IMG/VR virus record: IMGVR_UViG_3300021400_001610 | Coordinates: 18,490-82,489 of that record | DNA length: 64,000 bases | Source: a virus | Lineage: Duplodnaviria > Caudoviricetes | Strand: one strand, 5' to 3' | Shown here: in pieces, positions 1 through 18,177 of the stretch | Position numbering within the stretch: the first letter of the stretch is position 1 | How the letters are laid out: each line of letters begins with the position of its first letter | Made by a program: the position numbers and the translations under genes | The notes under the pieces: model-generated | Database searches by the model: none | What the model was told of the DNA's origin: nothing | Seen by the model: the letters and a program-made list of their open reading frames with translations, nothing else

Positions 1-177
1 ATAGAATGTGTCTTTGATTTCAAATTCTTTTCCACTTCCTTTTCTTTCCTCGAAAGCTTCGAAATCATTTAAGATACAATCGAAAGCATAAGGGCATCCA
101 TGACCATTAGACGTGGCACATTTCTTACAAACAGAACTATTTTTTGTGACCTCGATTAAATAATCATATAAATACAT
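1..177 (-). CDS. small Cys-containing hypothetical protein (runs off window start)
   Basis: Manually translated MYLYDYLIEVTKNSSVCKKCATSNGHGCPYAFDC...; RBS GAAAGGGG upstream of ATG at 177. Confidence 0.5.
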   Translation of the reverse strand, partial: MYLYDYLIEVTKNSSVCKKCATSNGHGCPYAFDCILNDFEAFEERKGSGKEFEIKDTFY

Positions 178-200
178 TTTCTTTTCCCCTTTCTTATAAT

Positions 201-380
201 TTAATTACAAATTGCTCTCCACGGTTTATCATCATGATTAATTTCCCAATGACAAGGGGCGGGTCCACTTAATATACAGTAATTTTCAAAATCTCTTAAA
301 GGACAAGTGGCACATGTTCCTTGTTCTTTGCATACTTCTTTAATTATTTCAAGTGCTTTCAAAATTTTTTCTTTTTCCAT
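201..380 (-). CDS. 59-aa Cys-rich hypothetical protein
   Basis: Manually translated MEKEKILKALEIIKEVCKEQGTCATCPLRDFENYC...; RBS GGGAG upstream; below ORF-track cutoff. Confidence 0.6.
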   Translation of the reverse strand: MEKEKILKALEIIKEVCKEQGTCATCPLRDFENYCILSGPAPCHWEINHDDKPWRAICN

Positions 381-423
381 TTCTTTCTCCCTTCTTATTT
401 TTGTCTGTGTTATACTATGAATA

Positions 424-514
424 TGGTGGAGATGATGAGGAGTCGAACCTCACGCACCAATAGGTACTTATTTCCCTGTAAGAGGGGTTGCCGTTATTCT
501 TACTTTCCATCCCC
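424..514 (-). ncRNA. tRNA-like / tmRNA-TLD-like 91-nt RNA with Ala identity elements
   Basis: Acceptor stem GGGGAUG/CAUCUCC with G3.U70, discriminator A, encoded CCA, T-arm UGAGG-UUCGACU-CCUCA; own promoter TTGACA(556-551)-17-TATTAT; no canonical D/anticodon arms. Confidence 0.65.
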
Positions 515-686
515 TTGTTGTATCTATATAATACCATAGTATTATACGATTGTCAACTCCTTTTTATAAAGTTTTAATTTTCTGACAATTATATCGGCCC
601 GGGCGGGCGCCCGCATCGTCTAATAACGATATACGATATGCTCCGATGAAAAGATGGGAGCACCGACTTGGATGCTCCCGATTGGG

Positions 687-1046
687 TTACTCACCCTTTT
701 CACGCATTTCCTTTTTCTTCCTACGGATTTCTGCGTCACGTTCCATTTTCTTTTTCTTTTTCTCGGCGTTGGCTTTTGCCTTTTCTGCCTTTTCTTTCAG
801 TTTCATTTCGTATTCTTCTGCCATCGAGTAACCGTCATAGGGTTCTGTACCCTTGTTTGCTCCTGTGGGAACTTTTACGGTGATGACGATGAAATCCTCA
901 TTGCCCTCGCAACCAACAACGGGAATTGCGATTTCGTTGGACTTAACACGGAGAACTTCTTCATCAGACAGTTTAAACTGTTCCATAATGGACTGAAGAT
1001 AAGTTTCTCTCAACATTTCTCTTTCTACTTTTCTTGATACTGCCAT
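687..1046 (-). CDS. hypothetical protein with C-terminal Lys/Glu coiled coil
   Basis: 119-aa ORF, RBS AAAGGAG, own promoter, terminator hairpin 656-680. Confidence 0.8.
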   Translation of the reverse strand: MAVSRKVEREMLRETYLQSIMEQFKLSDEEVLRVKSNEIAIPVVGCEGNEDFIVITVKVPTGANKGTEPYDGYSMAEEYEMKLKEKAEKAKANAEKKKKKMERDAEIRRKKKEMREKGE

Positions 1047-1371
1047 TGTTAACTCCTTTCGTTCTTTCCTTTATCTTGACTAAAGTATATCACATAATTG
1101 GGGACTTGTCAAGACGAATTTGGGATTTTATGAAATTTTTTTACGAAGAAAATTTGCTTTCTTTCCTTATTTTCTATATATATTATATCATAAAATTTTA
1201 AATTTGTCAATAGATTTTAAGAAATTCAGAAAATTAAAATTATTTTGAATTTTCTGAAAATTCGGCGGCGCCCGGGCGAGTTGGAAATATCATCCAACTC
1301 GACCTGTCCTGTCGATCCATTCACATATTGCCCATACAACGAATGAAAGAATGAGAAGTATAATAGTCATT

Positions 1372-1653
1372 TTATTTCTTTCCTCTCTTTGTCTTTTTTA
1401 CTAAACTTTTATCGTATACTTTGTCAACGTTCCAATGGTCATAATAATCATTGTAGAATTGTTCCTCACCTTTTAGATATGGTTTGTCACACTCTCCGAT
1501 GTTGTAACCATATTCGTCTGCGATTGGTTTAACGTAAGAATCATAATTCTTTGCTGTAATTCCTTTTACCTTTGCGTCTACTTGGGAAGTAGAAACGGCG
1601 AAGATTGCGAAGATAATGATTGCTAATATAATTGTAAAGATTTTCCGTGCCAT
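1372..1653 (-). CDS. small secreted/membrane protein
   Basis: Start moved to MARKIF at 1653 after RBS GAAGGGAG; N-terminal hydrophobic signal-like segment. Confidence 0.7.
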   Translation of the reverse strand: MARKIFTIILAIIIFAIFAVSTSQVDAKVKGITAKNYDSYVKPIADEYGYNIGECDKPYLKGEEQFYNDYYDHWNVDKVYDKSLVKKTKRGKK

Positions 1654-1714
1654 TGTCTCATCTCCCTTCTGTAAGTATATGATACTACAAAAGGATTGAC
1701 TTGTCAACCCCTTT

Positions 1715-1936
1715 TTAATCTTTTCTTAAAATTTTTAATTGATATTCGTTTAACCAATATTTACTATACTCTTCAAAATCTAAAGTATCAGAACGTAAAT
1801 CTCTTGCAATTGCATCTATTAATACAAACTCTAAAGAAGAAATATTTAACGATGTTAAATAGTAAGGGGTGAGACAAAAATCTTTGGAAAAAATTGCGAG
1901 TGTTTCATCTTTTTTTGTTAATTGATAAATAATCAT
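1715..1936 (-). CDS. hypothetical protein
   Basis: 73-aa ORF with RBS AAAGGAG and own promoter. Confidence 0.6.
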   Translation of the reverse strand: MIIYQLTKKDETLAIFSKDFCLTPYYLTSLNISSLEFVLIDAIARDLRSDTLDFEEYSKYWLNEYQLKILRKD

Positions 1937-2061
1937 TGTTTTTCTCCTTTCTCTATCATGTTTATTATACTTTAAAAATAAAGTTCTGTCAACCCCTTTT
2001 AATAAGTTAATTTTTTAACGATCGGCCCGGGCGCGGAGCACGGGAGCATGCTCCCGAACTC

Positions 2062-2727
2062 TTACGCAAAACATTTTTTTCTCATGGGTTTATGTTGACG
2101 CATACAGTGGACAAAGATTTCTTTTTCAATCAATACATCTTCAAGTCCTGTGTGAGATTCGATGAAATCATTATCCCCTGTGATGTATCTATAAAGAATT
2201 TCTGCGGTTTTTCTGACCCTACCATTTTTTGTAAGGTATCCGTTGGTATAACACCATTCCTTATAGTGAACTTGTTTACAAATGGTATCATTTGCCATTT
2301 TCATTGTGTCCCATAATTCAATACCATAGGGGAGGAAAAATCTGTATTTTGATTTTGTGATATAACGCTGTGTTTTAGATGTTGACTTGTAATCGAATCT
2401 TGCGTTGTGTGCGATTGCGACCTTTACATTATATTTCTTACATACATCTGCAAAGATTTTTCTTGCTTCGTAAAGGCTGACAACCTCACGCTCGCCATTT
2501 TTAATCTGCTCGTAGTATTTCGGAATTTTGTCTGCGTAGTATGCTGATTTCATTAATTCTCTCATTCCGAAGAATACTTCACGAATTACGAATGAATACT
2601 TTTCGTATACATTACCCATTTTGTCAATGATGGCGAACCCTAAATCATATACGATGGGGTCATCGAGTCCGTTGGCTGTCTCTGTATCGAATACTACATA
2701 ATACTTTTTACGTCTGTCAATCTTCAT
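2062..2727 (-). CDS. DEDDh 3'-5' exonuclease (DnaQ-like)
   Basis: ExoI VVFDTET, ExoII AHNARFD, ExoIII HTGLED; start moved to MKIDRRKK. Confidence 0.9.
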   Translation of the reverse strand: MKIDRRKKYYVVFDTETANGLDDPIVYDLGFAIIDKMGNVYEKYSFVIREVFFGMRELMKSAYYADKIPKYYEQIKNGEREVVSLYEARKIFADVCKKYNVKVAIAHNARFDYKSTSKTQRYITKSKYRFFLPYGIELWDTMKMANDTICKQVHYKEWCYTNGYLTKNGRVRKTAEILYRYITGDNDFIESHTGLEDVLIEKEIFVHCMRQHKPMRKKCFA

Positions 2728-2880
2728 TTTGTTTTCTCCTTCCGTTTTCTTTCCTTTGAACAATTATATATTACCATATAGGACGCAAGAAGTCAATACC
2801 TTTTTTTAAATTTTTTAAAGACGAAATATTCTGACAATGGGAGCACGGCGCCCGGGCGAAGACGAACAGATGTTCGTCTT

Positions 2881-3000
2881 CTATTTAGTCTTCAAAATGA
2901 AATACATTATTATTAGACCTATGATTGTGCCTACCCCTACTGCCGAAAAAGCTTGTAATGTAGTTAGAGTAGAATCGTGGATGAAATATAGAATAAACAT
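2881..3000 (-). CDS. 39-aa single-TM membrane peptide
   Basis: MFILYFIHDS...GVGTIIGLIIMYFILKTK after RBS AAAGGAG. Confidence 0.55.
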   Translation of the reverse strand: MFILYFIHDSTLTTLQAFSAVGVGTIIGLIIMYFILKTK

Positions 3001-3058
3001 TTTTTCTCCTTTTTTCTTTATTATACTACAAAAGGGTTGACTTGTCAACTCTTTTTTA

Positions 3059-3241
3059 TTATTTTTCTTCTTCATACCATACTTTATCAATCACTAAATT
3101 GTCTATCAACTTTTCGGGATTGTCTAAAATGTAATTCATTACCGATTCTTTATTGCTGGAATCTGTGACTATTTCAAAATCTTCTTTTTCTCCATCACAA
3201 GTTAAGTCAAACTTAATTGTAAATTCGATGTGCTGTATCAT
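3059..3241 (-). CDS. acidic hypothetical protein
   Basis: 60-aa ORF, RBS GAAGGGAG, own promoter. Confidence 0.65.
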   Translation of the reverse strand: MIQHIEFTIKFDLTCDGEKEDFEIVTDSSNKESVMNYILDNPEKLIDNLVIDKVWYEEEK

Positions 3242-3300
3242 TTTTCTATCTCCCTTCTGTGATTATATGTTATCACATTTGATGTCGTTTGTCAAGTCTT

Positions 3301-3465
3301 TTAGCACATTTTATCTTTACCAGTTTCTGTATCTGTAACACAAACTTCTCCATCTACATCTCCATCGGTTAAAGAAATAAACTTTTCTGCGGCTTCTTCA
3401 TAAGAATCAGCGTCAACATACCCACTAATGATAAAACTGCCTGATACAAAGTAAATTTTACTCAT
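3301..3465 (-). CDS. acidic 54-aa hypothetical protein
   Basis: True start MSKIYF at 3465 after RBS GAAGGGAG; the upstream extension in the ORF track crosses promoter and terminator. Confidence 0.65.
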   Translation of the reverse strand: MSKIYFVSGSFIISGYVDADSYEEAAEKFISLTDGDVDGEVCVTDTETGKDKMC

Positions 3466-3604
3466 TTTCTTTTCTCCCTTCTTTATCTTATCTATATTAT
3501 AGCAAATGGATCGACTTTTGTCAACCCTTAAATTAAAAAAAGAATATTCTGAAAATTTACGTCTTCGGCGCCCGGGCCGCGAACGTATGTTCGTGATCGA
3601 GTCT

Positions 3605-3635
3605 AAAAAAAAGAACGGACGTTTTGTCCGTTCTT
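3605..3635 (-). terminator. intrinsic terminator
   Basis: Stem AAGAACGGAC/GTCCGTTCTT plus U-run on minus strand, directly after the 3644 stop. Confidence 0.75.
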
Positions 3636-3643
3636 TTCTATCG

Positions 3644-3973
3644 TCAAGCGAGTGCGTAACCCTTGACCTTACCCTTACCCTTGACCTTGATTTCACTTAC
3701 TACGAGTCCATCAATCTGACGAAGCAACGCACTTGCTTTCTGCACCGAGATTTCAACCTTTTCGGCAACCTCTCCTGCGCTCTGCGGTTCGTGAGTGAGA
3801 ACTTCCTTAATCTTCGCCTTAATCGGCTCGTTAGCGATTGCGGTCTTGGAAGGGGAGTTCTTCCGCTTTGCGTTCTTCTCATCCATCTTGATGATTTCGC
3901 TCTTTGCCATTTCGATGACTTCTGCGTTTACGTTACCGTTGATGATTGCTTCGAACATTTCTCTCTTAGTCAT
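3644..3973 (-). CDS. winged-helix DNA-binding protein, MTKRE family paralogue 1
   Basis: MTKRE N-terminus, ISxQKASAL helix, KVKGKGK wing shared with 4745, 8204, 13356. Confidence 0.85.
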   Translation of the reverse strand: MTKREMFEAIINGNVNAEVIEMAKSEIIKMDEKNAKRKNSPSKTAIANEPIKAKIKEVLTHEPQSAGEVAEKVEISVQKASALLRQIDGLVVSEIKVKGKGKVKGYALA

Positions 3974-4162
3974 TTCGTACCTACTTTCTCGTGAAGGTCA
4001 CGACCCTTTTTAACTACTTGGGAGTTCCTGTCTCCCCTCTCTGTGATTATATATTACCATACTTTATTGAGTTTGTCAATACCTTTTTCAAAATTTTTTA
4101 TTAGTTATTTTTTTCACAAGGCGGCCCGGCAAAAGACGAACATATGTTCGTCATATTTTACC

Positions 4163-4333
4163 CTATACATTTTTGCTGTCATCCAAATTAAAATATTCTC
4201 TGATCCAAAATTCTTTTCCGCACTCGCAACAACGTGCTTTTGCTAAAACTCTAATATAGTCTCCGTAATAATCATATTTTTCTATATAGATTATTTCATA
4301 GTCTTCTGAATTACAATTTTTACATTTTGCCAT
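4163..4333 (-). CDS. 56-aa Zn-ribbon protein
   Basis: Manually translated MAKCKNCNSEDYE...RCCECGKEFW; two CxxC pairs; RBS AAAGGAG. Confidence 0.6.
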   Translation of the reverse strand: MAKCKNCNSEDYEIIYIEKYDYYGDYIRVLAKARCCECGKEFWIREYFNLDDSKNV

Positions 4334-4347
4334 TTTATTTTCTCCTT

Positions 4348-4494
4348 TTAATCTTCTGTCTGTAAATAAACACTATTAGCAATTTCAACTGTTTTAATTG
4401 GAATATAATTTTCTTCAAGTTTGTCATAGACAAATACATTCATATTCATATCATAACTATCTAAAAGTTCGTTAATAAGTTCTCTTACTGTCAT
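4348..4494 (-). CDS. 48-aa hypothetical protein (MTxRELIxEL family)
   Basis: Manually translated MTVRELINELLDSYD...; RBS and promoter; N-terminus similar to 10312-10464. Confidence 0.6.
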   Translation of the reverse strand: MTVRELINELLDSYDMNMNVFVYDKLEENYIPIKTVEIANSVYLQTED

Positions 4495-4744
4495 TTTTTC
4501 TCTCCTTTCTGTGATTTTATTCTATCACATTTTATCTTGTTTGTCAAGACCTTTTTTCAACTTTTTTATTTTGTTTTTTCTCTCCTTTCTTCTTGACAAT
4601 TATATTATAAACGAAAGTCAAGAAAAAGTCAAGAACTTTTTAGGATGTATATTGTATACATGAAGCGGGCGCCCGGGCCACCGTCGGAATATTCTGAAAA
4701 TTTACGGCGAAAAAAAAGAGGAGCAAGTGCTCCCCCCTTTTCTT

Positions 4745-5092
4745 CTATGCTACAGAGTAACCTTTCTGCTTACCCTTACCCTTTACCTTAACTTCTACTG
4801 CGGAAAGCTGACCATCTGTGACCAACTGTCTGCAAAGAGCACTTGCTTTCTGCGTGGAGATTTCCAACTCTCCTGCGATTACACTTGCCACAATCGGCTC
4901 ATTCTTACCGCCGAGGAACTCGACAATCTTTGCCTTAATCGGCTCATTGGCAATCGCTGTCTTTGACGGAGTGTGGGAACGCTTTGCATTTCTTGCGTCC
5001 ATCTTCTCGATTTCCGCCTTTGCGAAGTCTGCGATTTCGATTACATCAACGTTTGCGATTACTGCGTTCAGAAATTCTCTCTTAGTCATCAT
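4745..5092 (-). CDS. winged-helix DNA-binding protein, MTKRE family paralogue 2
   Basis: SKTAIANEPIKAKI, ISTQKASALCRQL, EVKVKGKGKQKGYSV. Confidence 0.85.
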   Translation of the reverse strand: MMTKREFLNAVIANVDVIEIADFAKAEIEKMDARNAKRSHTPSKTAIANEPIKAKIVEFLGGKNEPIVASVIAGELEISTQKASALCRQLVTDGQLSAVEVKVKGKGKQKGYSVA

Positions 5093-5209
5093 TTTGGTTT
5101 CCTTTCTGACCCTTTAGGTGGTTGTCATCCCTTTCCTTTATCTTGACTTTATTATATCACCTTTTCTTTGACTTGTCAAGACTTTTTTTTAGAACTTTTT
5201 TAATTTTTT

Positions 5210-5273
5210 TGGTGGTTTACCGTCACCACCGTTTTATGTTACGGCTTGGGGAGCATCATCTTTACTATCTCCC
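5210..5273 (-). ncRNA. candidate small structured RNA
   Basis: Own promoter (TTGACA 5313-5308, TAATAT); hairpins GGGAG/CUCCC, CCGU/ACGG and GGUGGU/ACCACC (the last two overlap); only a 6-codon ORF. Confidence 0.3.
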
Positions 5274-5460
5274 TTGTTGTATATATATTATCACTTATGA
5301 CCCTATTTGTCAACAACTTTTTGCTATGTATTTTGTATACATGATTTCTTTTACGCTTTAGTGCGGTGAAGCGGCGCCCGGGCCGAGCAAACGTATGTTC
5401 TTTTGTGGAGTAAAAAAATAGGGCAAGACGCGTCCGTCTCGCCCTCGTTCCTATCCACTT

Positions 5461-5592
5461 TCAGAACGTTGCGCCTAATTGCTGTCGCGCCCGCGGTGGA
5501 AGGCTATGGCGCGGTGAGTTGGTACCACTCACTATTCGGCTTACATTTCTGTCATCGCGCCTTGCCATCGGCGCTTCGGTATGAACTTTCAT
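5461..5592 (-). CDS. 43-aa GC-rich small ORF (or structured RNA)
   Basis: RBS AAAGGAG, promoter, MKVHTEAPMARRDD...; terminator hairpin ~5419-5446. Confidence 0.35.
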   Translation of the reverse strand: MKVHTEAPMARRDDRNVSRIVSGTNSPRHSLPPRARQQLGATF

Positions 5593-5636
5593 TTGAGTTA
5601 TCTCCTTTCTGTGATTATATATTATCATATTTGGTA

Positions 5637-5828
5637 TCATTTGTCAATAAGTTTTCTCGTATATATCAAATATTCTTCTGCTGTCATCTCTTTTATTGTG
5701 GCCTTATCATCACAACTATCAAACCAATAATCAATCATATAATTAATAGCGCGATTTTTGTTGATGAAACGCCCAACTATATCTCCATTTGTGTTAATTA
5801 CACAATATAATCTTTTTACTTTTTTCAT
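5637..5828 (-). CDS. hypothetical protein
   Basis: MKKVKRLYCVINTNGDIVGRF...; start could be the GTG at 5834. Confidence 0.6.
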   Translation of the reverse strand: MKKVKRLYCVINTNGDIVGRFINKNRAINYMIDYWFDSCDDKATIKEMTAEEYLIYTRKLIDK

Positions 5829-5900
5829 TTTCACTTGGATTTCCCCCTCTCTGTGATTATATATTATCATATTCGATGTGGTTTGTCAAGTGTTTTTTTA

Positions 5901-6110
5901 TTATTTTCTCATTGCGTCACAGTAATATTTATAAATTTCATCGAAAGTATATTGATAACCGCAATCACAATTGACTACATGATGCATAGCAACGTATTCA
6001 TTGCCTTTATGCGTAAAGAAATCAAAATCTTCTATAGTAGATTCGTAGTCATATCCGCCACACTTGGGACAACCATCAAATTCTTTATAATCTTTAAATT
6101 TAATTTTCAT
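5901..6110 (-). CDS. Zn-ribbon protein
   Basis: CPKC ... CDCG pairs; RBS AAAGGAG; architecture like 4163-4333. Confidence 0.7.
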   Translation of the reverse strand: MKIKFKDYKEFDGCPKCGGYDYESTIEDFDFFTHKGNEYVAMHHVVNCDCGYQYTFDEIYKYYCDAMRK

Positions 6111-6146
6111 CTTTTTATCTCCTTTTCTTTTTGTGATTATATATTA

Positions 6147-6323
6147 TCACATTTCTGCAAGTTTGTCAAGTGCTATTAATAATCTTTTCTTATTTTTATA
6201 AAGTCTATTGTTTGTGCAATACGTACAAGTGCCATGATTTCTGCAAGTATGATCGATTGCCTTTGAACCATAATACTTTTTTCTTTTCTCTTTTCTATGT
6301 TCAATCGCCTTGTCAAGTGCCAT
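6147..6323 (-). CDS. small basic Cys/His phage protein
   Basis: SKAIDHTCRNHGTCTYC motif; start moved to MALDKA after RBS GGGAGG. Confidence 0.7.
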   Translation of the reverse strand: MALDKAIEHRKEKRKKYYGSKAIDHTCRNHGTCTYCTNNRLYKNKKRLLIALDKLAEM

Positions 6324-6454
6324 CTTATTTACCTCCCTTGCAATTATATGATAACATATCACTTCTACTTTGTCAACCCTTTTTTAAATGTTTAAATATT
6401 CTGAAAATTGGCTTCGGCCCGGGCGAAAATGATGCCAAAAGGCATCATTTTTAT

Positions 6455-7090
6455 CTATTCAGGAAGGCAACTTGCTCCAATTCTATCACAACCCATTTCA
6501 ATATATTTTTCCATTTCTTCACGAGTACGAATACCGCCACTTGCCTTAATTTTCGTATCATTATGAATGTTTGCTTTCATAATTTCGATGTCTTTGAATG
6601 ATGCACCGCGAGTTCCAAACCCTGTGGAAGTCTTTACATAGTCTGCGGGAGTATTGTCTACAATCTTTGTGGCGATTGCGATTTCTTCATCAGTAAGATA
6701 ACAAGTTTCAATTATTACTTTCAGAATTACTCTATCATTCATTTTATTAATTCTGTCGTAAATAGTCTCGATTTCTTTTTTAATAAGATGATAGTTACCG
6801 TTTTTCATGTCTCCAATATTGATAACCATATCAATCTCATTTGCCCCATCGAAAACGGCGGATTCGGCTTCTTTAACCTTTGTCATTGTGTTACAATTTC
6901 CAAGAGGAAAACCCACAACTGTGCAAATTTTAAGTGTTGGGAAGAAGTTATAAACGAAGTCTACATAGTGAGAAGGAATACAGACAGAGGCACAACCCTT
7001 TTCTACTGCCTTTTCGCACAGATTCCAAATATCATTATTCGTTGCGGTTGCTTTCAGAAGTGTGTAGTCGATGTGTTCATAAATATTCAT
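6455..7090 (-). CDS. deoC: deoxyribose-phosphate aldolase
   Basis: DYTLLK, VGFPLG, GANEIDMVIN, KVIIET, Schiff-base VKTSTGF, KASGGIRT, RIGAS. Confidence 0.95.
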   Translation of the reverse strand: MNIYEHIDYTLLKATATNNDIWNLCEKAVEKGCASVCIPSHYVDFVYNFFPTLKICTVVGFPLGNCNTMTKVKEAESAVFDGANEIDMVINIGDMKNGNYHLIKKEIETIYDRINKMNDRVILKVIIETCYLTDEEIAIATKIVDNTPADYVKTSTGFGTRGASFKDIEIMKANIHNDTKIKASGGIRTREEMEKYIEMGCDRIGASCLPE

Positions 7091-7224
7091 TGTTGTTTCT
7101 CCTTTCCTTTATCTTGTCTATATTATAACAGAAGTATTTCAATTTGTCAACTATTAAATTGTATTAAAATTGTATTTGTCGGCGGCCCGGGCAAAACAAG
7201 TCGAAAAAAAATAGACCCGAAGGC

Positions 7225-7386
7225 CTATTCATAAGAAGAGATATCTATTAAATTTCCCTCATTATCAAAATTAAAACTAATACCACCGTAACTTGACATA
7301 CTGTCTATTTCTATAGAATTATTGTCTACATATACTATATTAGCCTTAATAGTTTCTAATATTCTTTTTAATTCTTCTTTTGTCAT
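7225..7386 (-). CDS. 53-aa hypothetical protein
   Basis: Manually translated MTKEELKRILETIKANIVYVDNNSIEID...; RBS and promoter present. Confidence 0.6.
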   Translation of the reverse strand: MTKEELKRILETIKANIVYVDNNSIEIDSMSSYGGISFNFDNEGNLIDISSYE

Positions 7387-7580
7387 TGTATTCACCTTTC
7401 CTTTCCTTTATCTTGTCTATATTATAGCAAACATCTTTTATTTTGTCAACCCCCAAATTAAAAGTTTTAATTTTCAGATAATTTTAGTGGCCCGGGCGCC
7501 ACGAACGTATGTTCGCAAATAAGTGAAGCGGTTCACTTTATGTAAACCGCTTCGTATAAGGAAAGGAGGAAGTTAGTTAA

Positions 7581-7838
7581 TTACATAATATGGATTTCAA
7601 ATTGTTCCAACATCGTCATTGCAACTAATCCAACGGTAATTCCTAACATGCAACCGTCTTTGATTTTGTCTGCAACGGGACGTTGAAGAACAAAACATCT
7701 TGTAAAGGAAAGAATGTTGGCGAACAGATAAACGAACTGTCCAATCAAGAAATCTGCCTTTACTACACACTGTGCAGTAATCAGAGTAATCAATACCAAG
7801 TAATTCAATTCTTTCCATACCATCTGAAATTTAGTCAT
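7581..7838 (-). CDS. small multi-TM membrane protein
   Basis: Three hydrophobic segments in 85 aa; terminator hairpin GAAGCGGTT/AACCGCTTC at 7525-7553. Confidence 0.7.
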   Translation of the reverse strand: MTKFQMVWKELNYLVLITLITAQCVVKADFLIGQFVYLFANILSFTRCFVLQRPVADKIKDGCMLGITVGLVAMTMLEQFEIHIM

Positions 7839-7885
7839 TCTCTTTGTTTCCTTCCTTGTTTCTTTCTGATACTATTATAACGCAT

Positions 7886-8026
7886 TTATGCGATGTTGTC
7901 AACCTTTTTTTGAAAATCTTTTAAAAGATTTTCGAGATGAACTTTCTGCATCTTCTCAAAAGCCTGTCTATTCGGAATCAGTGTTGTATATTTCTCTAAT
8001 TCGTTTACGATTTCCTTTTTAGTCAT
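7886..8026 (-). CDS. 46-aa hypothetical protein
   Basis: Manually translated MTKKEIVNELEKYTTLIPNRQAFEKM...; RBS GAGAGG. Confidence 0.55.
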   Translation of the reverse strand: MTKKEIVNELEKYTTLIPNRQAFEKMQKVHLENLLKDFQKKVDNIA

Positions 8027-8203
8027 TTCTTTTTCCTCTCTTTCTGTAATTATATGATAACACACTTTCCCATAAAAGTCAACCCCTTTTTCATATTCAT
8101 AATTTTCTGAAAATTAGTTGCGCCCGGGCGCCTGTCTGAATATTCTGACAATTAATTTCCAAAAAAAAGAAGGGCGATTTGCCCTTCCTTTATTTTCCAA
8201 AAA

Positions 8204-8548
8204 CTAACAGACGCTATATCCCTTCTGTTTGCCCTTGCCCTTAACCTTAACCTCAACGGCAGTCAGTGTACCACCTTCTACCATCTGCCGACAGAGTGCG
8301 GAAGCCTTCTGAACAGAGATTCCGACCTCTGCGCCGATTGCACTTGCCGTGATAGGCTCGTCACAATCCTTGAGGAAGTCTGCAATGGCAACCTTGATAG
8401 GCTCGTTTTCCTGTGCCTTCTTGGACACCGTTGCTCTACGCTTTTCGTTCTTTGCGTCCATCTTTACGATTTCGGATTCTGCGAACTTGATAACTTCGTC
8501 AGTGATGTTGCCTGCGATAACCATTTCCATCATTTCTCTCTTAGTCAT
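8204..8548 (-). CDS. winged-helix DNA-binding protein, MTKRE family paralogue 3
   Basis: Start moved to MTKREMM at 8548; VGISVQKASALCRQM, EVKVKGKGKQKGYSV. Confidence 0.85.
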   Translation of the reverse strand: MTKREMMEMVIAGNITDEVIKFAESEIVKMDAKNEKRRATVSKKAQENEPIKVAIADFLKDCDEPITASAIGAEVGISVQKASALCRQMVEGGTLTAVEVKVKGKGKQKGYSVC

Positions 8549-9105
8549 TTTGTACCTTCTTTCTTGCGTTGGTCGCAACCCTTTTTCATTAGTTTTAGGA
8601 AGTTCCTGTCTTCCTTTTTCCTTTTGTGTCTTTATTATATCAGATTTTCGGAAATCTGTCAAGACCTTTTTTAACTTTTTTTGAAAAACTTTTTATTTTG
8701 GGAGAAGTTTTTCTATTTCCCTTTTCTGTATCTTTATGATAACATATTTTCGGGATTTTGTCAAGGGGAAAATTTCTTTTTTGTTGAGAAAGACGCATCT
8801 TTTTTCCGCTCACGCTCAACATTCTCGGAATAGTTTTTCTTTCTTTCCCCTTGACAATTATATTATAAAGGAATTTTCTAAAAAAGTCAACCCTTTTTAT
8901 GAAAAAATTATAGAAAAATAATTCTGAATTTTGGGAACTTTCAGAAAATTCTGAAAATTTTCGGCGCCCGGTCGATCCGAATTATGGGAAATTATGGGAG
9001 TGGGCGATCGCCCGGGCGCACTGTGCGTCAGAATTTTCTGAAAATTTGCAGAAAAATAAAGGTCCCATTATGACTAATGGGACAATTTTCCAAGAATTTT
9101 GGGAA

Positions 9106-9237
9106 TTACATCAACACTGTGAAAATATTCCAAAACGATAACGGACAACCCTCTAAATTCTTTGAAAGAATTTCGATGTATGAAGCGGTGAACCAAACAC
9201 CAAAAGCGATTAACGGCGTACATAAAATCTTTTTCAT
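9106..9237 (-). CDS. 43-aa hydrophobic peptide
   Basis: Manually translated MKKILCTPLIAFGVWFTASYIEIL...; start overlaps the stop of the upstream ORF. Confidence 0.55.
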   Translation of the reverse strand: MKKILCTPLIAFGVWFTASYIEILSKNLEGCPLSFWNIFTVLM

Positions 9238-9470
9238 ACTAACTGCCACCCCCAAGATTCCTGTGCATCAAGAAAACCCTTGATAGTCCAAATTGCTTTC
9301 TTGATGTCTTCTCTTTCAATAATTTCGCCTGTGTAAATGTTTTCCAAACATTCCGCATCATCGGCGTCCATTGCCGTTGCAATTTCTTTGAGTACGTATT
9401 CGCCGAAAGCGAGCCACGCCCTATCATCCTGTGTGATTGTCATTACGATTTTCTTGTCAAACTGTGCCAT
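9234..9470 (-). CDS. acidic hypothetical protein
   Basis: Start moved to MAQFDKK after RBS AAGGAG. Confidence 0.7.
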   Translation of the reverse strand: MAQFDKKIVMTITQDDRAWLAFGEYVLKEIATAMDADDAECLENIYTGEIIEREDIKKAIWTIKGFLDAQESWGWQLV

Positions 9471-9675
9471 ATCTTTTCTCCTTTCTCTCTCTGTGATTAT
9501 AATATACCACATATCACCTACACTGTCAACCCCTTTTTATAAAAATACTTCGTTAATTAATTCACAAGGCGGCCCGGGCGCTACGAACATATGTTCTCTT
9601 AATAAGGCGAGAACGAACAACCTTTCGTTGTCCGTTCTCTTTATATGTAAGGAGGAAACAAATGTCATTTCGTTT

Positions 9676-10119
9676 TTAGTTAATACCTTTCAAAACTTCC
9701 ATAATCTGACTTTCATCAAAGGCTTCACCCTTCCAATTATTTCTATTCGGTGTTTCATCATCGAACAGAATACCGTTGGGGAAGTTTACTACTTCTTCTT
9801 TCGGTGTACCATATTTTACAATGTGGATTTCATCGAAGTGAACGCTTTTCAGATGTGCTTTGAGCCACTGAATTTTTGTTGTTGTGACCTTTTCATCGAA
9901 TTCGGCGGTGGAATTCTTTGCCAACCAACTTACGATTCCGATTGTATATCCTTTTCTCTGAAGATTGTTGAGAACCTTTGCGAGTGCCGACAGACGCAGG
10001 AGCGGAGCTGCCTGTGCATACGGTGTAGCGTCTTCAGCTTTCAGATAGTCGAGCCATCCATTAACACCGTAGAAGTTTGCGATTGTTCCGTCCATATCGA
10101 AGTAGATTGCCTTGGTCAT
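9676..10119 (-). CDS. HAD-superfamily phosphatase, 5'(3')-deoxyribonucleotidase-like
   Basis: Motif I YFDMDGT, motif IV ILFDD. Confidence 0.8.
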   Translation of the reverse strand: MTKAIYFDMDGTIANFYGVNGWLDYLKAEDATPYAQAAPLLRLSALAKVLNNLQRKGYTIGIVSWLAKNSTAEFDEKVTTTKIQWLKAHLKSVHFDEIHIVKYGTPKEEVVNFPNGILFDDETPNRNNWKGEAFDESQIMEVLKGIN

Positions 10120-10311
10120 TTTGTTTTCCTCTCTTTCCTTTTCTCTATATAGAGTATATCAAAAATTTCTCGATTTGTCAACTATTTTTACCGATTCGGA
10201 AAATGTTTTTTAATTCTAAATATTCTGAAAATTGGCGGGCGCCCGGGCAGAAAGAACGTGTGTTCGTCCATGGCGCCCCGGGCGAAAAAAAAATAAGCCT
10301 TTCGGCTTATT

Positions 10312-10464
10312 TTAAAAGTAAATTACTACTTCATTTTCATTCTGTCTACTTTCTACTACTGAATAAATATCATCGTCTTCTGCGTTTCTTACTCTTGCAT
10401 TTTCGTCAACTTCTCCATTAGCTACCATTGCATTCAGTTCTTCAATCAGTTCTCTAATTGTCAT
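10312..10464 (-). CDS. 50-aa acidic hypothetical protein (MTxRELIxEL family)
   Basis: Manually translated MTIRELIEELNAMVANGEVDENARV...; RBS GAGG and promoter. Confidence 0.6.
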   Translation of the reverse strand: MTIRELIEELNAMVANGEVDENARVRNAEDDDIYSVVESRQNENEVVIYF

Positions 10465-10559
10465 TGTATTTACCTCTTCTTTCCTTATCTTGTCTTTATT
10501 ATATCACAGCTTCGCCAGCTTGTCAACAACTTTTTTTCTCCGGTTCATCCGAAGGAGGC

Positions 10560-11033
10560 TTATGCCTCCTCCGCCATCATCTTCATCATCTGTTTTTCGT
10601 TGATGAAGCTTGCTTTTTCAAACTTAATCTGATAAGCGATTCCATTTACTGTCAGGTCGCCGTCTTCGGTGAACGGTACATTGTCCTTTTCCCATTCCTG
10701 TCCGTTCAGCTCGGTCATCAGCTTTTCGAAAATCTCGCCTTTGTTGTACTTGCTTTCGCTTGCCAGCTCATCGAAGAACTTTTCGGAGCAGAGAACCTTT
10801 GCTCCCATGCTCATCAGCAGAGCTTTCTGACCTTTGTTCGGCTTGAACCGAAGTGCGTACCCAGCTCCACGGCTCGCCTTGTCCAGCTTCAGCAGCTCCG
10901 GCAGAATCTCAGCTGTCACGAGGACGAACCAGATATTTCCAGCAGCTCTGAATCCGAAAATGTAGTTGTGGGTGTAGCTATGACGATTGTAAAATCCTAC
11001 CATTTTTGCTTTGAGTGCGACGTTGGTTGACAT
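10560..11033 (-). CDS. putative PD-(D/E)xK-fold nuclease-like protein A
   Basis: Start moved to MSTNVA after AAAGGAG; NKGEIFE...DGDL...YQIK motif; homologous to 12289-12828. Confidence 0.7.
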   Translation of the reverse strand: MSTNVALKAKMVGFYNRHSYTHNYIFGFRAAGNIWFVLVTAEILPELLKLDKASRGAGYALRFKPNKGQKALLMSMGAKVLCSEKFFDELASESKYNKGEIFEKLMTELNGQEWEKDNVPFTEDGDLTVNGIAYQIKFEKASFINEKQMMKMMAEEA

Positions 11034-11109
11034 AATATGCTCCTTTCCAATTCCTACCAATCTCCCCCTGTCATAGACAGTTTACTACAAATACAAATAT
11101 TCGTCAAAT

Positions 11110-11743
11110 TGCATAGATATACATTGACCGTTGAAATTTCAACGTTTTTAGAACTTTATACATGAATATTCATGCATTATACATTGTATACAAAGTGCAT
11201 ATGCAAAAAACAGTGCATAATATACATGTTTATGCATAAAATCAAACCCGAAAACGTTGAAATTTCAACGTTTTTATGTATGTTCTTAAAAAACAATGAA
11301 TATTCATGGATTTTACCGATTATACATAAAAATAAATTTTCATGCACGCCCGGGCGGAATTGAACCGAAATCGGTTCGATTCATAAATGAATCGAACCGA
11401 ATCCGACTCAGTTAGTTAGTTAGATTGAACTAACTCGGTCCGGCGGTCGCCCTGCGTGCAGTATACTGTATACTGTATACCGCATACTGTATACACGACT
11501 GAATAGTCTGACAATTCTGAAAAGAACGTATGTTCGTGCATAAATATACACTTGTTCGCACCCGCGAACATCCGTTTACTATTCCGATAATTAGTTTATG
11601 CGGAATAGTTCAAGGGTGTGAAGCGGAGAAAACGTTGGAATTTCAACGTTTTCAACTATTCCGATAATTAGTTTTCTCGGAATAGTAAACAAATGTTCGC
11701 GTTTCGGTATGTATATTCATGCATACGAATGCATATCTATGCA
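11110..11743. promoter_or_regulatory. ArgR(ARG)-box-like palindromes TGMAT-N4-ATKCA
   Basis: Cores at 11110, 11163, 11223, 11297, 11537, 11710, 11730; the last two are a tandem pair with 20-bp period. Confidence 0.45.
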
Positions 11744-11895
11744 CGAACAGAACATATGTTCGCGAACAGACCATAAACATATGTTTGTATACTGTATACA
11801 CGGATACTGTATACTGTATACTGTATACACGTCAGAATAGTCTGATAATTGTTAGTTAGACGGAACTAACTCGAGTGTACTGTATACTGTATACA
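11461..11895. repeat. GTATACT heptamer tandem blocks / TGTAT-N5-ATACA palindromes
   Basis: Blocks at 11461-11495, 11786-11829, 11876-11895; the first two continue into a shared GAATAGTCTGA(C/T)AATT. Confidence 0.9.
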
Positions 11896-11916
11896 CAATA
11901 CAATGTAAGTACAATC

Positions 11917-12142
11917 CTTTAGTCTGATAAAGTGGTAACGCGTTAATGCGTTAGTCCTTTATCCCTTTAACGTACTAAAGTATACCAATATGGTATACTT
12001 TAGTACGTTAAACTTCTAAACTTTAGTAGACTAAAGTCTACTGTATTGGTAGACTTTAATGCGTTAAACTTCTGAACTTTAGTGTGGTAAAGTGGACCAC
12101 AGACGTACACTTTATTACGTTAATCCTTTAGTGTAATAAAGT
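11917..12142. repeat. iteron-like array CTTTA-N7-TAA(AG) with perfect 22-bp inverted repeat
   Basis: Units at 11917, 11965, 11998, 12021, 12054, 12077, 12110, 12126; perfect IR 11966-11987 / 11991-12012. Confidence 0.9.
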
Positions 12143-12214
12143 CCCTTGCAAGTATCATGCCAAGAGATATATTTAAGAGTGATTGAAAAAGATATATGAA
12201 TTGCAATTTATGTA

Positions 12215-12243
12215 TTGACGTATCCGGCAATATAGCATATAAT
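12215..12243 (+). promoter_or_regulatory. sigmaA-type promoter
   Basis: TTGACG-17-TATAAT upstream of 12289. Confidence 0.8.
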
Positions 12244-12288
12244 CTATAGTATCAGATAACACATTTGAATTGTAAAGGAGACGAAACA

Positions 12289-12828
12289 ATGACTACTAAC
12301 AGAACTACAATGAATAATGAAATCAAAATGGCTATCCTTGAAAAACTGTTTGCAGTAGAAGCAACTCACACCTATGGATTCGCTATCCGTGACAATGGCA
12401 TGGTTAAGGCGGCAATAGTTGAAAATGCCGATGATGTAATTCCCTTTATAACAGTATGCGAACGTAACTCAAAGTCGCACGGTGGCGTATACGGTGTGCG
12501 GATGTGGAATTCTAATAAAGCATTTGAGATTATCAAAGAGTATGCACGTGAGATTATTACACTTTGCACAGTAGAAGAATTCGAACGGCAGTTCAAAGAA
12601 GCAAAGGAAAATGGTTTCAAAGGCAATCGCGGTGACTTCTTCGAACCTACTTTTGCAAAGGCTACTGGAGCAAAACTGAATACAGTAAGAAACGAAAAAT
12701 GCACAGACTGCGGAGATGTGAACCTGAATGGAGAAGAAATCCAATTAAAACTGTGGAATGCCACATTGACCACCGAACCACAAGTAAATACATTCTATGA
12801 AAGAATGATTGCAAACAAGGCTGAGTAA
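12289..12828 (+). CDS. putative PD-(D/E)xK-fold nuclease-like protein B
   Basis: Start MTTNRT after AAAGGAG; NRGDFFE...CGDV...IQLK motif; terminator AAGGCT/AGCCTT plus T-run follows. Confidence 0.7.
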   Translation: MTTNRTTMNNEIKMAILEKLFAVEATHTYGFAIRDNGMVKAAIVENADDVIPFITVCERNSKSHGGVYGVRMWNSNKAFEIIKEYAREIITLCTVEEFERQFKEAKENGFKGNRGDFFEPTFAKATGAKLNTVRNEKCTDCGDVNLNGEEIQLKLWNATLTTEPQVNTFYERMIANKAE

Positions 12829-13355
12829 GCCTTGTTTTTTTTATGCCGTGAGCCTTTATTCTTTGATTTCCGCGACTTTGATGCCTACATTGAGTATTTA
12901 TACCATTAACGATAGAAAAGTCGCTTATATCGGCGAATACGGCGGGAGCACGGTAGTCTGTTAAATAATTAACAATTATGCTCCCGATGCTCCGATGCTC
13001 CGTTAAAAAATTAACAAACATGCTCCTGTTTTCGGGAAGACGTACCTGTAAATAAATGGAAGCCCTTGAGTTAAATCCCTCTAACTTTTGGGAAAATCTC
13101 CCATGGTATTTTTTACCACCCTCCAATTCTGACAACGAAATTTTTCGTGAAAAATTTAACAAAGGGCAAAAGATTTTTCTCGCCGAAGACAGAATTTTCT
13201 GACAATTCAAAGGCGGGGCGTAGTTTTCGGAATTGCGCGAATTGTCTGACAATTCAGCTCCTGAGCGTGGAAAATAATCTCCACGAAATCAAAATTTCAT
13301 TTACAAAAAGATTCAAATAAAAAAGAGAGCCTCAACCTTCGGCTCTCTTCAATCC

Positions 13356-13712
13356 TTAAACGTAATATGCTCTTCGAATTCCTTTCCCCTTAATTTTAAC
13401 TTCAGTCGCCCGTATACGCCCTTCGCGCACCAAACTTGTACAAATCGCCGTAAAACGCTGTCTCGTAAGCTCCGGCGCCACCTCGACCATTATATCGGCA
13501 ATCGTAAACGGCTGACCGGGATTACTTTGTAGGAGTTCACAAATTCGATCTCCGTAGGCCCTATTCTCCTTATAGAGTTCAGTTTCCTTCGATCTCGCCA
13601 ACGTCGCCGCCGCCTGAGCATTTAACTTTTTCAATTCCTTTTTACATTCTTCAATTAACTCTTCACTAATTTCTCCATGAATTACAGCTTCAAGCCTTTC
13701 TTTCCGTGTCAT
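13356..13712 (-). CDS. winged-helix DNA-binding protein, MTKRE family paralogue 4 (divergent)
   Basis: MTRKERLEAVI, LTRQRFTAICTSLVREGRI, EVKIKGKG. Confidence 0.8.
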   Translation of the reverse strand: MTRKERLEAVIHGEISEELIEECKKELKKLNAQAAATLARSKETELYKENRAYGDRICELLQSNPGQPFTIADIMVEVAPELTRQRFTAICTSLVREGRIRATEVKIKGKGIRRAYYV

Positions 13713-15715: not shown

Positions 15716-16178
15716 AGTAATCTTTCTCCCTTCTAATACATCCTGAACATGGAAAATCAGTATCATATGTTCCAACATGTCTACATCCGTCACAAGTTAA
15801 TACAAATGGCTGTGCAGATGGAAATGATATAATGTCAGCAATTACTTGATCATGGTCTACTGATTCACCAACCTCGCTCTTTTCGATTCTGTTTTTAATA
15901 ATTTCTATTGCATCTTGTTTACTAAAAGGAACTGATTTCTTATCTTTTAATTCTCTAATTTTTTCCTGCATTTTATGCAGCATATCATTCGTAGCCTCTT
16001 GACATTCTTTACAATATGCACTTTGCTCTTGCAATACTTTGATTGCTATATGCAATGCTTCTTGCATATCTTTTTCTATTCCACTATACCACGTATTTAG
16101 CTCACCTTCGCCATAGTCATTTATATTAAATAACATAAGCATTTTTGCTGCTTTTGCTGCTTTTTCTTCTCTTGTCAT
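15699..16178 (-). CDS. hypothetical protein with C-terminal Cys cluster
   Basis: 159-aa ORF, CDGC...CSGC. Confidence 0.7.
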   Translation of the reverse strand: MTREEKAAKAAKMLMLFNINDYGEGELNTWYSGIEKDMQEALHIAIKVLQEQSAYCKECQEATNDMLHKMQEKIRELKDKKSVPFSKQDAIEIIKNRIEKSEVGESVDHDQVIADIISFPSAQPFVLTCDGCRHVGTYDTDFPCSGCIRREKDYYEQER

Positions 16179-16611: not shown

Positions 16612-17919
16612 ATGAATAGGCTGAAGCTTGATTTTACTTTAGAGTCGGCAAAAGAACGAGTCGACTTTATTAATACATATATAAAACAATTTGATAACTT
16701 AACGGAGAAAGAAATTACGACTATTGAAGAATATTTGTTATGGGGTAAGGATGAAAATGGAATTGCCATTGGCGCCGGAACGGGATTAGAAACGAGATGG
16801 AGTAAACCAAAAGAAGCAGAATCGCTTGACGCAGTTTTAGAAAACCCAGCTTTAGCAAATAGTCAACTTTGTTCGTTGAATGATGCAGTTGTTTATAAGA
16901 AAAATAGAGACGTTTTTAATAGAAATGAAGCGAGAAAACAGGCTCCCTCGTTTATTTTACGGATTTTTGAAGATTTGTGGAGAGATATAGATGAAACGGA
17001 ATTGGAGATTAATTTCTACGAAGAAAGAACTGGAAAAAGAAAAAATCCACCAAGGGATGAACTTGTAAAACGCTTTACAAATGAAGAGGTTGAACTCATA
17101 CGTGCGCGCAGCAAAAAACTCAATCAATATAAGTATTTGAAGTTGAGACATAAGTTAAAAGAGTTAAGAGTTGAACAGTTTACAATTAGAGACTCTTATA
17201 GATCAACTTTTAATATCACTCAATCTATTTATAGTCCAAAAGAGAAGACTTTTGTTTTTGATTATGATGTAGAAGTTTTGCCGTTGGGAATTAAAGAAGG
17301 ACAGGTTGGATACTTAATTTTTGATACGAACTTTGACCCCGGCGCCCTAACCGAAAAACAGCTACGTATGATTAGTGATTTAATTTGGAAGAAAAAGAAA
17401 AATCAAAATGAAAGAATTTTTGACTTTAGAAATTTAGAGATGGTTTATCAACTTTACTTATTTAAAGAAGACTTAAATGATAGAGTTGAAAAAATTGATT
17501 ATGATCATTTGGTTGAGAACAATTTGAAAGGATTGATTGATACTTTAAAGTTTTATGAATCAATTGCTGACTTAACAGATATACAACGTGAGATACTGCG
17601 GCTGAAAGAACAAAAAAAGAAAAATACAGATATAGCCGCGTATATTAATGAAAAGTATGGAAAAAGCTATACTGCTAATTATATTAGCACTATTTTTAAA
17701 CAAAAAATTATTAGTAGAATTAATGAAGCAGTAAAACTTCATCAAGATACAATTGAAAATTGTTTCTTTGAAGAGAACTTTAAAGCATGCTGTGATTGCG
17801 GCAGAATTTTATTATTAGATAGCAGAAATTGGGTTAAAAAAGCTAGAAGCAAAGATGGCTTTCAAAATAGATGTAAGAGATGCGAGCACGAAATGAGAAG
17901 GAAAAAGAAGGGGAATTAG
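16612..17919 (+). CDS. putative transcription factor: sigma70-r4/LuxR-like HTH plus C-terminal Zn finger
   Basis: LTDIQREILRLK...DIAAYINEKYG HTH-like; CCDCG...RCKRC; promoter TTGACT(16563)-17-TATACT; start moved to MNRLK after GGAGG. Confidence 0.6.
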   Translation: MNRLKLDFTLESAKERVDFINTYIKQFDNLTEKEITTIEEYLLWGKDENGIAIGAGTGLETRWSKPKEAESLDAVLENPALANSQLCSLNDAVVYKKNRDVFNRNEARKQAPSFILRIFEDLWRDIDETELEINFYEERTGKRKNPPRDELVKRFTNEEVELIRARSKKLNQYKYLKLRHKLKELRVEQFTIRDSYRSTFNITQSIYSPKEKTFVFDYDVEVLPLGIKEGQVGYLIFDTNFDPGALTEKQLRMISDLIWKKKKNQNERIFDFRNLEMVYQLYLFKEDLNDRVEKIDYDHLVENNLKGLIDTLKFYESIADLTDIQREILRLKEQKKKNTDIAAYINEKYGKSYTANYISTIFKQKIISRINEAVKLHQDTIENCFFEENFKACCDCGRILLLDSRNWVKKARSKDGFQNRCKRCEHEMRRKKKGN

Positions 17920-18177
17920 ATGAAGAAAGGAAGAAGTAAACCAGAAAGACTTCTGGAAGAAATTATTAAATTAGACCATGTGCAGTTTCTTGGGATTTGC
18001 AAGATTTTAGATATAAAAATTTTTAAAGACGAAGAAAAAGGTAAAGATGCTGAACCAAAAACTTTTTATGAGCTATGGAGTGAGATGTGCGATGTGATTA
18101 ATGATATGAATCGCACTCGGCGCCGGAACTTAGCTAAATTGGTTTACGCAGCTACTAAAGAAGAAAAGGAGGAATAA
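17920..18177 (+). CDS. hypothetical protein
   Basis: 85-aa ORF tightly coupled to both neighbours. Confidence 0.7.
   Translation: MKKGRSKPERLLEEIIKLDHVQFLGICKILDIKIFKDEEKGKDAEPKTFYELWSEMCDVINDMNRTRRRNLAKLVYAATKEEKEE

Follow-up and report, generated by a model that had tools for sequence, protein, structure and literature searches.

Which protein reads a 15-nt palindromic box that recurs through the early region of an uncultured phage, and to what effect? The question is raised by a stretch of DNA of 64,000 nucleotides (the window), positions 18490-82489 of the 82,489-base IMG/VR phage record IMGVR_UViG_3300021400_001610, a record that is ~70% complete. The left end of the window carries an array of sequences matching AATTTTCWGAAAATT, the 15-nt CodY box, two copies of which, sharing 6 nt, make up the typical 24-nt CodY site (PMC10415144, PMC5314169). 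To judge from their sequence and arrangement, the boxes are real protein-binding operators. That they serve as operators for the CodY of the host is the reading we favor, with a probability of roughly 0.55.

The box array and its promoters

Perfect copies of AATTTTCTGAAAATT were found at 1248, 8101 and 9032, where shuffles of the window led us to expect 0.01. With up to two mismatches allowed, AATTTTCWGAAAATT has 17 sites in the window against 2.32 expected, and the largest number in any shuffle was 9. Fifteen of these 17 sites fall in 576-13254 and two in 13.4-64 kb. The initial annotation had suggested comparing motif counts in 1-13.4 kb with those in 13.4-64 kb; the densities are 1.1 per kb in the early region and 0.04 per kb in the remainder. 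Shuffling the early region in 50-bp blocks, which keeps the local composition, gave a mean of 0.145 sites and a maximum of 2, compared to the 15 observed. Among 201 sampled Clostridia genomes, even the richest has a box density about 75 times lower. In addition to the three perfect sites, there are eight with one mismatch (576, 3543, 4688, 6395, 7469, 8936, 10219, 13193) and, inside the early region, four with two (8139, 8945, 9043, 13240). The sites with three mismatches are partly due to chance; those at 1221, 2825, 11502 and 11836 have a meaningful context. The array extends about 550 bp to the left of the window, where a double site is located at genome positions 17937-17960.

The counts of perfect and near-matching boxes given in the initial annotation were all correct, as were the 6 bp shared by boxes 8936 and 8945 and the 9-bp spacing of TCTGA at 11502-11525. 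Five boxes had also been placed 18-19 bp before a -35 hexamer. These distances held up (19, 18, 18, 19 and 18 bp to TTGACA or TTGACT), with the correction that the promoters and their genes are on the minus strand. The boxes and the elements next to them are as follows.

576..590, minus strand: CodY-type box, reads AATTGTCAGAAAATT; 19 bp to the -35 hexamer of the promoter that serves a gene for a transfer RNA (tRNA)-like RNA
528..556, minus strand: early promoter TTGACA-17-TATTAT
1248..1262, minus strand: perfect box, 37 bp to the -35 hexamer of promoter 1210-1182; second, degenerate box at 1221-1235
3543..3557, minus strand: box with one mismatch, 18 bp to the -35 hexamer of promoter 3524-3496
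4688..4702, minus strand: box with one mismatch, upstream of a GC core; 55 bp to the -35 hexamer of promoter 4632-4604
6395..6409, minus strand: box with one mismatch, 18 bp to the -35 hexamer of promoter 6376-6348
7469..7483, minus strand: box with one mismatch, 19 bp to the -35 hexamer of promoter 7449-7421
8101..8153, minus strand: two boxes around a GC core, the perfect one at 8101-8115 (18 bp to the -35 hexamer of promoter 8082-8054) and the other at 8139-8153 (gap 56 bp)
8936..8959, minus strand: 24-nt double site whose boxes share 6 nt; differs at 3 positions from the overlapping CodY site in its optimised form (PMC10415144); 45-54 bp to the -35 hexamer of promoter 8890-8862
9032..9057, minus strand: perfect box and an overlapping weaker one, directly downstream (on the minus strand) of terminator 9083-9062
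10219..10233, minus strand: box with one mismatch, 37 bp to the -35 hexamer of promoter 10181-10153
11497..11525, minus strand: double box in a gene-free repeat hub without a nearby promoter, adjoining a LexA-type box and GTATAC repeats; L005 and L024, two related loci, share this double site
11836..11850, minus strand: degenerate box in a hub, after two LexA-type boxes and GTATAC repeats; no promoter nearby
13193..13254, no strand assigned: pair of boxes at a distance of 47 bp, located between convergent genes and more than 650 bp from any promoter
597..11355, no strand assigned: GC core CCCGGG, mostly GCCCGGGC, 16 copies, marking cassette boundaries

GC skew and open reading frames place the genes at 1 to ~11,000 on the minus strand. 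We found 30 minus-strand promoters in 1-13,400 with at most 2 of 12 mismatches to TTGACA-17-TATAAT; ten of them match at all 12 positions, and many carry TG ahead of the -10 hexamer. All 16 copies of the hexamer CCCGGG in the window fall within its first 13.4 kb, and the remaining 50.6 kb have none. Fourteen promoters with a GCCCGGGC-like GC core no more than 110 bp upstream are referred to as boundary promoters; they are usually preceded by a terminator-like hairpin, and often by a LexA-type box, CGAACNNNNGTTCG. A CodY-type box is located no more than 95 bp upstream of 10 of the 14 boundary promoters, compared to none of the 16 promoters lacking a core (Fisher p = 3.3e-5). The gap between box and -35 hexamer is 18/19 bp in five cases and 37 bp in two, and 45-56 bp in the others. 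Where a core is found within 60 bp upstream, the box usually begins 5-8 bp past it. Between the box and the -35 hexamer lies an A/T-rich spacer whose end is AAAAAGGGG-like and which appears to resemble an upstream (UP) element. The boxes in the window are absent over the -35 and -10 hexamers and occupy positions -54 to -69 or positions further upstream. The early region can be described as an array of single-gene minus-strand cassettes, at 14 of whose boundaries the order is terminator, often a LexA-type box, the GCCCGGGC core, an operator slot, the A/T-rich UP-like spacer, and a near-consensus sigma-A promoter.

The arrangement of the boxes relative to one another was compared to that of known CodY sites. 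Two CodY dimers bind a double site cooperatively, and longer arrays build in the same register; AATTTTCAGAATTTTCAGAAAATT is part of the optimised site employed in CodY crystallography (PMC10415144). In the phages, additional TCWGA cores near a box are almost confined to offsets of +/-9, 18 and 27 bp. Four matches to the 24-mer AATTTTCAGAATTTTCAGAAAATT with three or fewer mismatches are present in the window (8936-8959 being one of these). In the related phages introduced below, L011 has nine matches with up to four mismatches, and L011 and L004 each have one site with a single mismatch; mirror controls gave 0 in the window and in the relatives. A matrix of 109 sites keeps A1, A2, T3, T4, T6, C7, G9, A10, A13, T14 and T15, in agreement with AATTTTCWGAAAATT, and tolerates G/T at position 5, A/C at 11 and A/T at 12.

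Related phages were gathered through a family of small winged-helix proteins, which yielded 46 IMG/VR loci and four loci in metagenome-assembled genomes (MAGs). For the box scan of these loci the consensus was widened to AATTKTCWGAMAATT, with at most one mismatch. Boxes are abundant in L011, L005, L010, L026 and L006, and few in L004, L024 and L009; these box-bearing relatives are phages of the rumen or gut. When the window and these eight relatives are taken together, 17 boxes end 18/19 bp before the -35 hexamer, seven end 36/37 bp before it, and another seven 54-57 bp. The GC core is either kept or wholly missing in the related phages. When the box-bearing promoter regions were aligned to box-free relatives, the best local matches, which are not proven orthologues, had a different sequence at the place of the slot. 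The window (528-600) and L005 (11139-11228) share an identical promoter for the tRNA-like RNA gene. The L005 operator slot upstream of this gene matches that of a different window cassette (6348-6424, promoter 6376); therefore, upstream slots are swapped between cassettes.

The same module is present in cultured phages. A search of 2.9 million viral contigs in IMG/VR for a box followed by N18/19 and TTGACW returned only 21 stretches, among them those of the relatives and of the Bacillus subtilis phages phiNIT1, Grass and BSP38. All near-consensus boxes of these B. subtilis phages are located in the terminal redundancy, which is their early region. In phiNIT1 (L066:790-960) and in L077-L081, the terminal repeats contain a hairpin, a GC-rich stretch, AATTGTCAGAATATT, 18 bp, and TTGACT-17-TATACT, in this order. 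The box (14/15) and its spacing are invariant across six phages from two genera of Herelleviridae, and the phages with the invariant module include phiNIT1, Grass and Goe20; the neighbouring sequence contains insertions and deletions. Each terminal repeat holds just two sites. B. subtilis encodes CodY and was the control genome in our CodY search; the CodY consensus has been shown to matter in this species (PMC5314169). In the Bacillus cereus-group phage Troll, two sites with at most one mismatch were found in 163 kb, which is no array at that stringency.

CodY and other candidate readers of the boxes

We read the boxes as CodY-type operators because of the sequence match, the double sites in a 9-bp register, the spacing conserved across the relatives, and the presence of the same module in phages of the CodY-bearing B. 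subtilis. The link to early promoters proposed in the initial annotation is supported on the same grounds, the 24-nt double sites being those described for CodY (PMC10415144). Like the CodY operators of Bacillota, the phage boxes match the consensus (three perfectly, eight with one mismatch), have near-invariant C7 and G9 within A/T-rich arms, form overlapping double and triple sites in a 9-bp register, and are intergenic. They differ from these operators in belonging to a phage genome and in their density, which is ~75 to several hundred times that of bacterial genomes. Most are found upstream of the -35 hexamer (centers at about -62, -80 and -99), not over or downstream of the promoter, and the G5/C11 variant and T12 are common among them.

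Several of these features, and others, weigh against CodY as the reader. A position upstream of the promoter and not over it is unusual for CodY repression, and the frequent G5/C11 variant deviates from the textbook consensus; recognition by CodY is mostly by DNA shape, with just two base-specific contacts per half-site (PMC10415144). The sites have a polarity that is not readily accounted for by a symmetric dimer: along the direction of transcription, 79 of 109 have A at the center, T12 is tolerated in the right half, and A4 never occurs in the left half. About 37 of the 50 related loci have no box. In a crude comparison using BLAST alignments to the relatives, boxes and flanks were conserved to 79% and 80%, respectively; this comparison is uninformative because the matches are mosaic and were seeded by the conserved promoter. 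Finally, the host may lack codY. CodY was found above the Pfam cut-off in 44 of 200 sampled Clostridia genomes. Three of the four MAGs holding distant relatives of the phage had no CodY match, and the one CodY-positive MAG (G001) holds a relative, L050, without boxes; the other three MAG contigs have no boxes either.

To judge from the encoded proteins, the source is a large tailed phage of a Firmicute able to live without oxygen; the host of this uncultured phage would be a Gram-positive gut or rumen bacterium. For the terminase, identity is ~42% with the Geobacillus virus E3 protein and ~36% with the proteins of large Enterococcus phages. PHROG matches were obtained for a portal protein and a large DNA polymerase, and an anaerobic ribonucleotide reductase and a DnaB-type helicase are also encoded. 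For the first 14 kb of the window, megablast found no match among cultured phages. Genome-wide box counts in the 201 Clostridia did not separate genomes with CodY from those without; in a hand tally, the 44 CodY-positive Clostridia had 269 near-consensus matches, compared to 164 for the mirror control. Some genomes lacking a CodY match are enriched as well; one of them, the 1.3-Mb Clostridia genome G058, has 19 scattered near-consensus sites, with two in its control, and no match to the CodY GAF-domain family.

The boxes could instead be read by a DNA-binding protein of the phage itself, such as a factor for early shut-off or for the switch from early to middle genes, with the likeness to CodY due to convergence or mimicry. 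We consider this unlikely, although the strictly promoter-anchored geometry, the orientation bias of the sites, and the patchy distribution of the boxes among the relatives would suit such a protein, as would the lack of CodY in most sampled Clostridia. With a record covering ~70% of the genome, the binder could also lie outside it. No CodY-family protein was matched in the phage record, and Pfam HTH_CodY gave nothing even at E = 1. The phage does encode at least five winged-helix paralogs, four of which, of 109-118 aa, are on the minus strand of the window at 3644-3973, 4745-5092, 8204-8548 and 13356-13712; the fifth is at genome positions ~16990-17340. This family has more than 6000 metagenomic homologues, no Pfam family and no known function. 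In the search for a host, the paralog protein matched just one uncultured faecal phage record; the predicted fold consists of a long N-terminal helical part and a winged helix (predicted local distance difference test, pLDDT, 89). As CodY look-alikes the paralogs were rejected. A profile of four sequences weakly matched the C-terminal, DNA-binding domain of CodY in the PDB (E = 0.65), whereas a profile of 69 sequences returned MJ223 and MarR-type proteins and no CodY; the predicted fold matches generic winged-helix proteins, with no CodY among the top 50. The residues with which CodY contacts DNA (the LSYS motif, the T-R-S-V recognition helix and the G-M wing; PMC10415144) are not kept in the paralog alignment. 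Furthermore, no recognition-helix variant of the paralogs tracks the boxes, since the helices are the same in box-rich and box-free phages. Within ~10 kb of the loci, in records that are fragments, no protein family was confined to the five box-rich relatives; every family common to these five also occurs in 34-42 box-free loci. In the B. subtilis Herelleviridae, where the box and its spacing are identical, the winged-helix paralog found no match. The 24-nt sites with their 9-bp register are of the form described for CodY.

Two other explanations differ in what the boxes would do. If the boxes were mainly a decoy, they would titrate CodY on the replicating phage genome and derepress host genes for amino-acid and nucleotide supply, with promoter control being secondary. 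The density of ~1.1 sites per kb, far above that of any sampled bacterial genome, the three perfect sites, the boxes away from promoters (in the hubs and at 13193-13254), and the co-occurring LexA-type boxes, none of which is over a promoter, would fit this. A decoy, however, does not need a fixed distance to the -35 hexamer, and across the phages 17 sites keep 18/19 bp; the boxes are limited to boundary promoters, and the two sites per terminal repeat in the B. subtilis phages are too few to titrate CodY. Titration may be one effect of the boxes; as their main function we regard it as quite improbable. It is very improbable that no dedicated protein is involved, the box being an extended UP element, a curved-DNA feature, or a passenger in the duplication of promoter cassettes. 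The box is indeed A/T-rich and abuts the UP-like spacer, and the regions upstream of the cassettes are mosaic and clearly copied between promoters. This explanation has to contend with C7 and G9, which are almost invariant within an A/T context, with palindromic sites and double sites in a 9-bp register, with boxes far from promoters, and with 16 equally strong promoters that have no box. The same 15-mer is also found in B. subtilis phages that have no detectable sequence similarity to the window.

Direction of the effect and precedents

Class I activator sites, such as those of CAP, center at -61.5. The phage box centers are at -61/-62 in 17 cases (five of them in the window), at about -80 in seven, and at about -99 in seven, so that the first group resembles class I sites. 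The initial annotation had proposed that CodY activates from -62 in this manner. The position is right for five promoters, but the proposal is not supported. The box-bearing promoters are already near consensus; the other positions (~-80 and ~-99, in steps of ~18.5 bp) are off one helical face. The promoters also persist in the best matches from box-free relatives, where the slot is filled differently. Consensus strength, the lack of helical phasing, and homologous promoters without a box all set the phage sites apart from those of CAP. Box-bearing promoters have a mean of 0.7 mismatches to the 12 consensus positions, compared to 1.15 for the other promoters; their spacers are A-rich and UP-like, and TG often precedes the -10 hexamer. 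At most of its known targets CodY represses, by competing or by forming a roadblock, and it activates only a few (PMC5314169). With a terminator on one side and the following promoter on the other, the boxes are placed where a roadblock could act against read-through (PMC5314169).

If CodY binds, damping or insulation, to which we give slightly better than even odds, is more likely than activation, a possibility to which we give a little under a third. We infer both the binding of CodY and its consequence, as follows. When the cells are well fed, active CodY would be bound at these sites of high affinity, with cooperative binding at those that are double and keep a 9-bp register; the bound protein would adjust the output of the boundary promoters and shield the cassettes from read-through. 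From its place just upstream of the UP-like spacer, CodY would impede docking by the alpha subunit of the polymerase, possibly through spreading across the A/T-rich spacer at 9-bp intervals; alternatively, it would stop polymerases that read through the preceding terminator. The copies in the hubs suggest a second role away from promoters, and could couple another process, perhaps replication, to the nutrient signal. The phage thus probably ties its early gene expression to the nutritional state of the host.

There are precedents for phages that carry sites for host regulators. Spo0A boxes of phi29 and Nf are located at early promoters and near replication origins. The behavior of these virulent Bacillus phages depends on the host Spo0A boxes they carry (PMC2731898). 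The phage described here would resemble them in having host-regulator consensus sites at early promoters (10 boundary promoters) and in putative replication regions (the repeat hubs). It differs in that the signal would be nutritional and not sporulation, in that the slot is repeated over many single-gene cassettes, and in that the spacers are shared with LexA-type boxes. For CtrA sites in phages of Alphaproteobacteria, a 'lytic deferment' was proposed from comparative genomics (PMC9437464). The likeness is that sites for a global regulator of the host are inferred to time phage development; phylum, regulator and site architecture are different. In the literature we found no report linking CodY boxes to phage early promoters.

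If CodY reads the boxes, large phages of Firmicutes would sense the amino-acid and GTP supply of the host directly, at the first step of infection. This would bear on nutrition-dependent phage yield and timing, on the behavior of gut and rumen phages, and on the design of nutrient-responsive phage promoters. The presence of the module in cultured B. subtilis phages makes the idea testable by standard genetics. A wider and more doubtful proposal is that the early region reads several inputs from the physiology of the host and possibly acts as a sink for them. The interchangeable slots and the two hubs would then carry sites for several global regulators of the host (those of CodY and LexA type for certain, others possibly), through which single takeover cassettes, and perhaps replication, are gated by the nutrient and DNA-damage state of the cell; relatives would swap operators to suit the regulators of their hosts.

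LexA-type boxes and other elements of the early region

With at most one mismatch to CGAACNNNNGTTCG, 10 LexA-type boxes are present in 2863-11762, that is, all in the early region; four are perfect, and the mirror control gave 0. They are thus a second operator of host type limited to the early region, as the CodY reading would lead one to expect. None overlaps a promoter. Several are extended into longer palindromes, for example, at 2858-2881, and some relatives have up to 22 LexA-type boxes in 14 kb.

Four boundary promoters have no CodY-type box. Two of these have a CATGTATACAAWATACAT palindrome just upstream of the -35 hexamer (4640-4660 and 5325-5345), and the other two have a partial Rex-like sequence between core and promoter. 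Rex-like TTGTKAA-N4-TTMACAA sequences near boundary promoters, or in their vicinity, are found at 2004-2021, 9550-9567 and 12958-13017. Rex-type boxes with up to three mismatches are not enriched in the window, with 24 compared to 23 in the mirror control.

A separate repeat family, TTTCCAGAAA / TTTCTAGAAAA / TTTTTGGAAAA, forms arrays in gene-free DNA and scores as weak CodY-like matches. Its arrays are located at genome positions 15900-16020, to the left of the window, and at L006:13680-13760, L010:19076-19130 and L026:17307-17370. A composite unit of LexA-type boxes, GTATAC repeats and a double CodY-type box is present in three copies, one of them inverted. Two copies are in the window (11440-11540 and 11740-11850), and the third is at genome positions 17880-17960, ~530-610 bp to the left of the window; together they bracket the early module. 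Units similar to this composite are also found in L010, L024 and L026.

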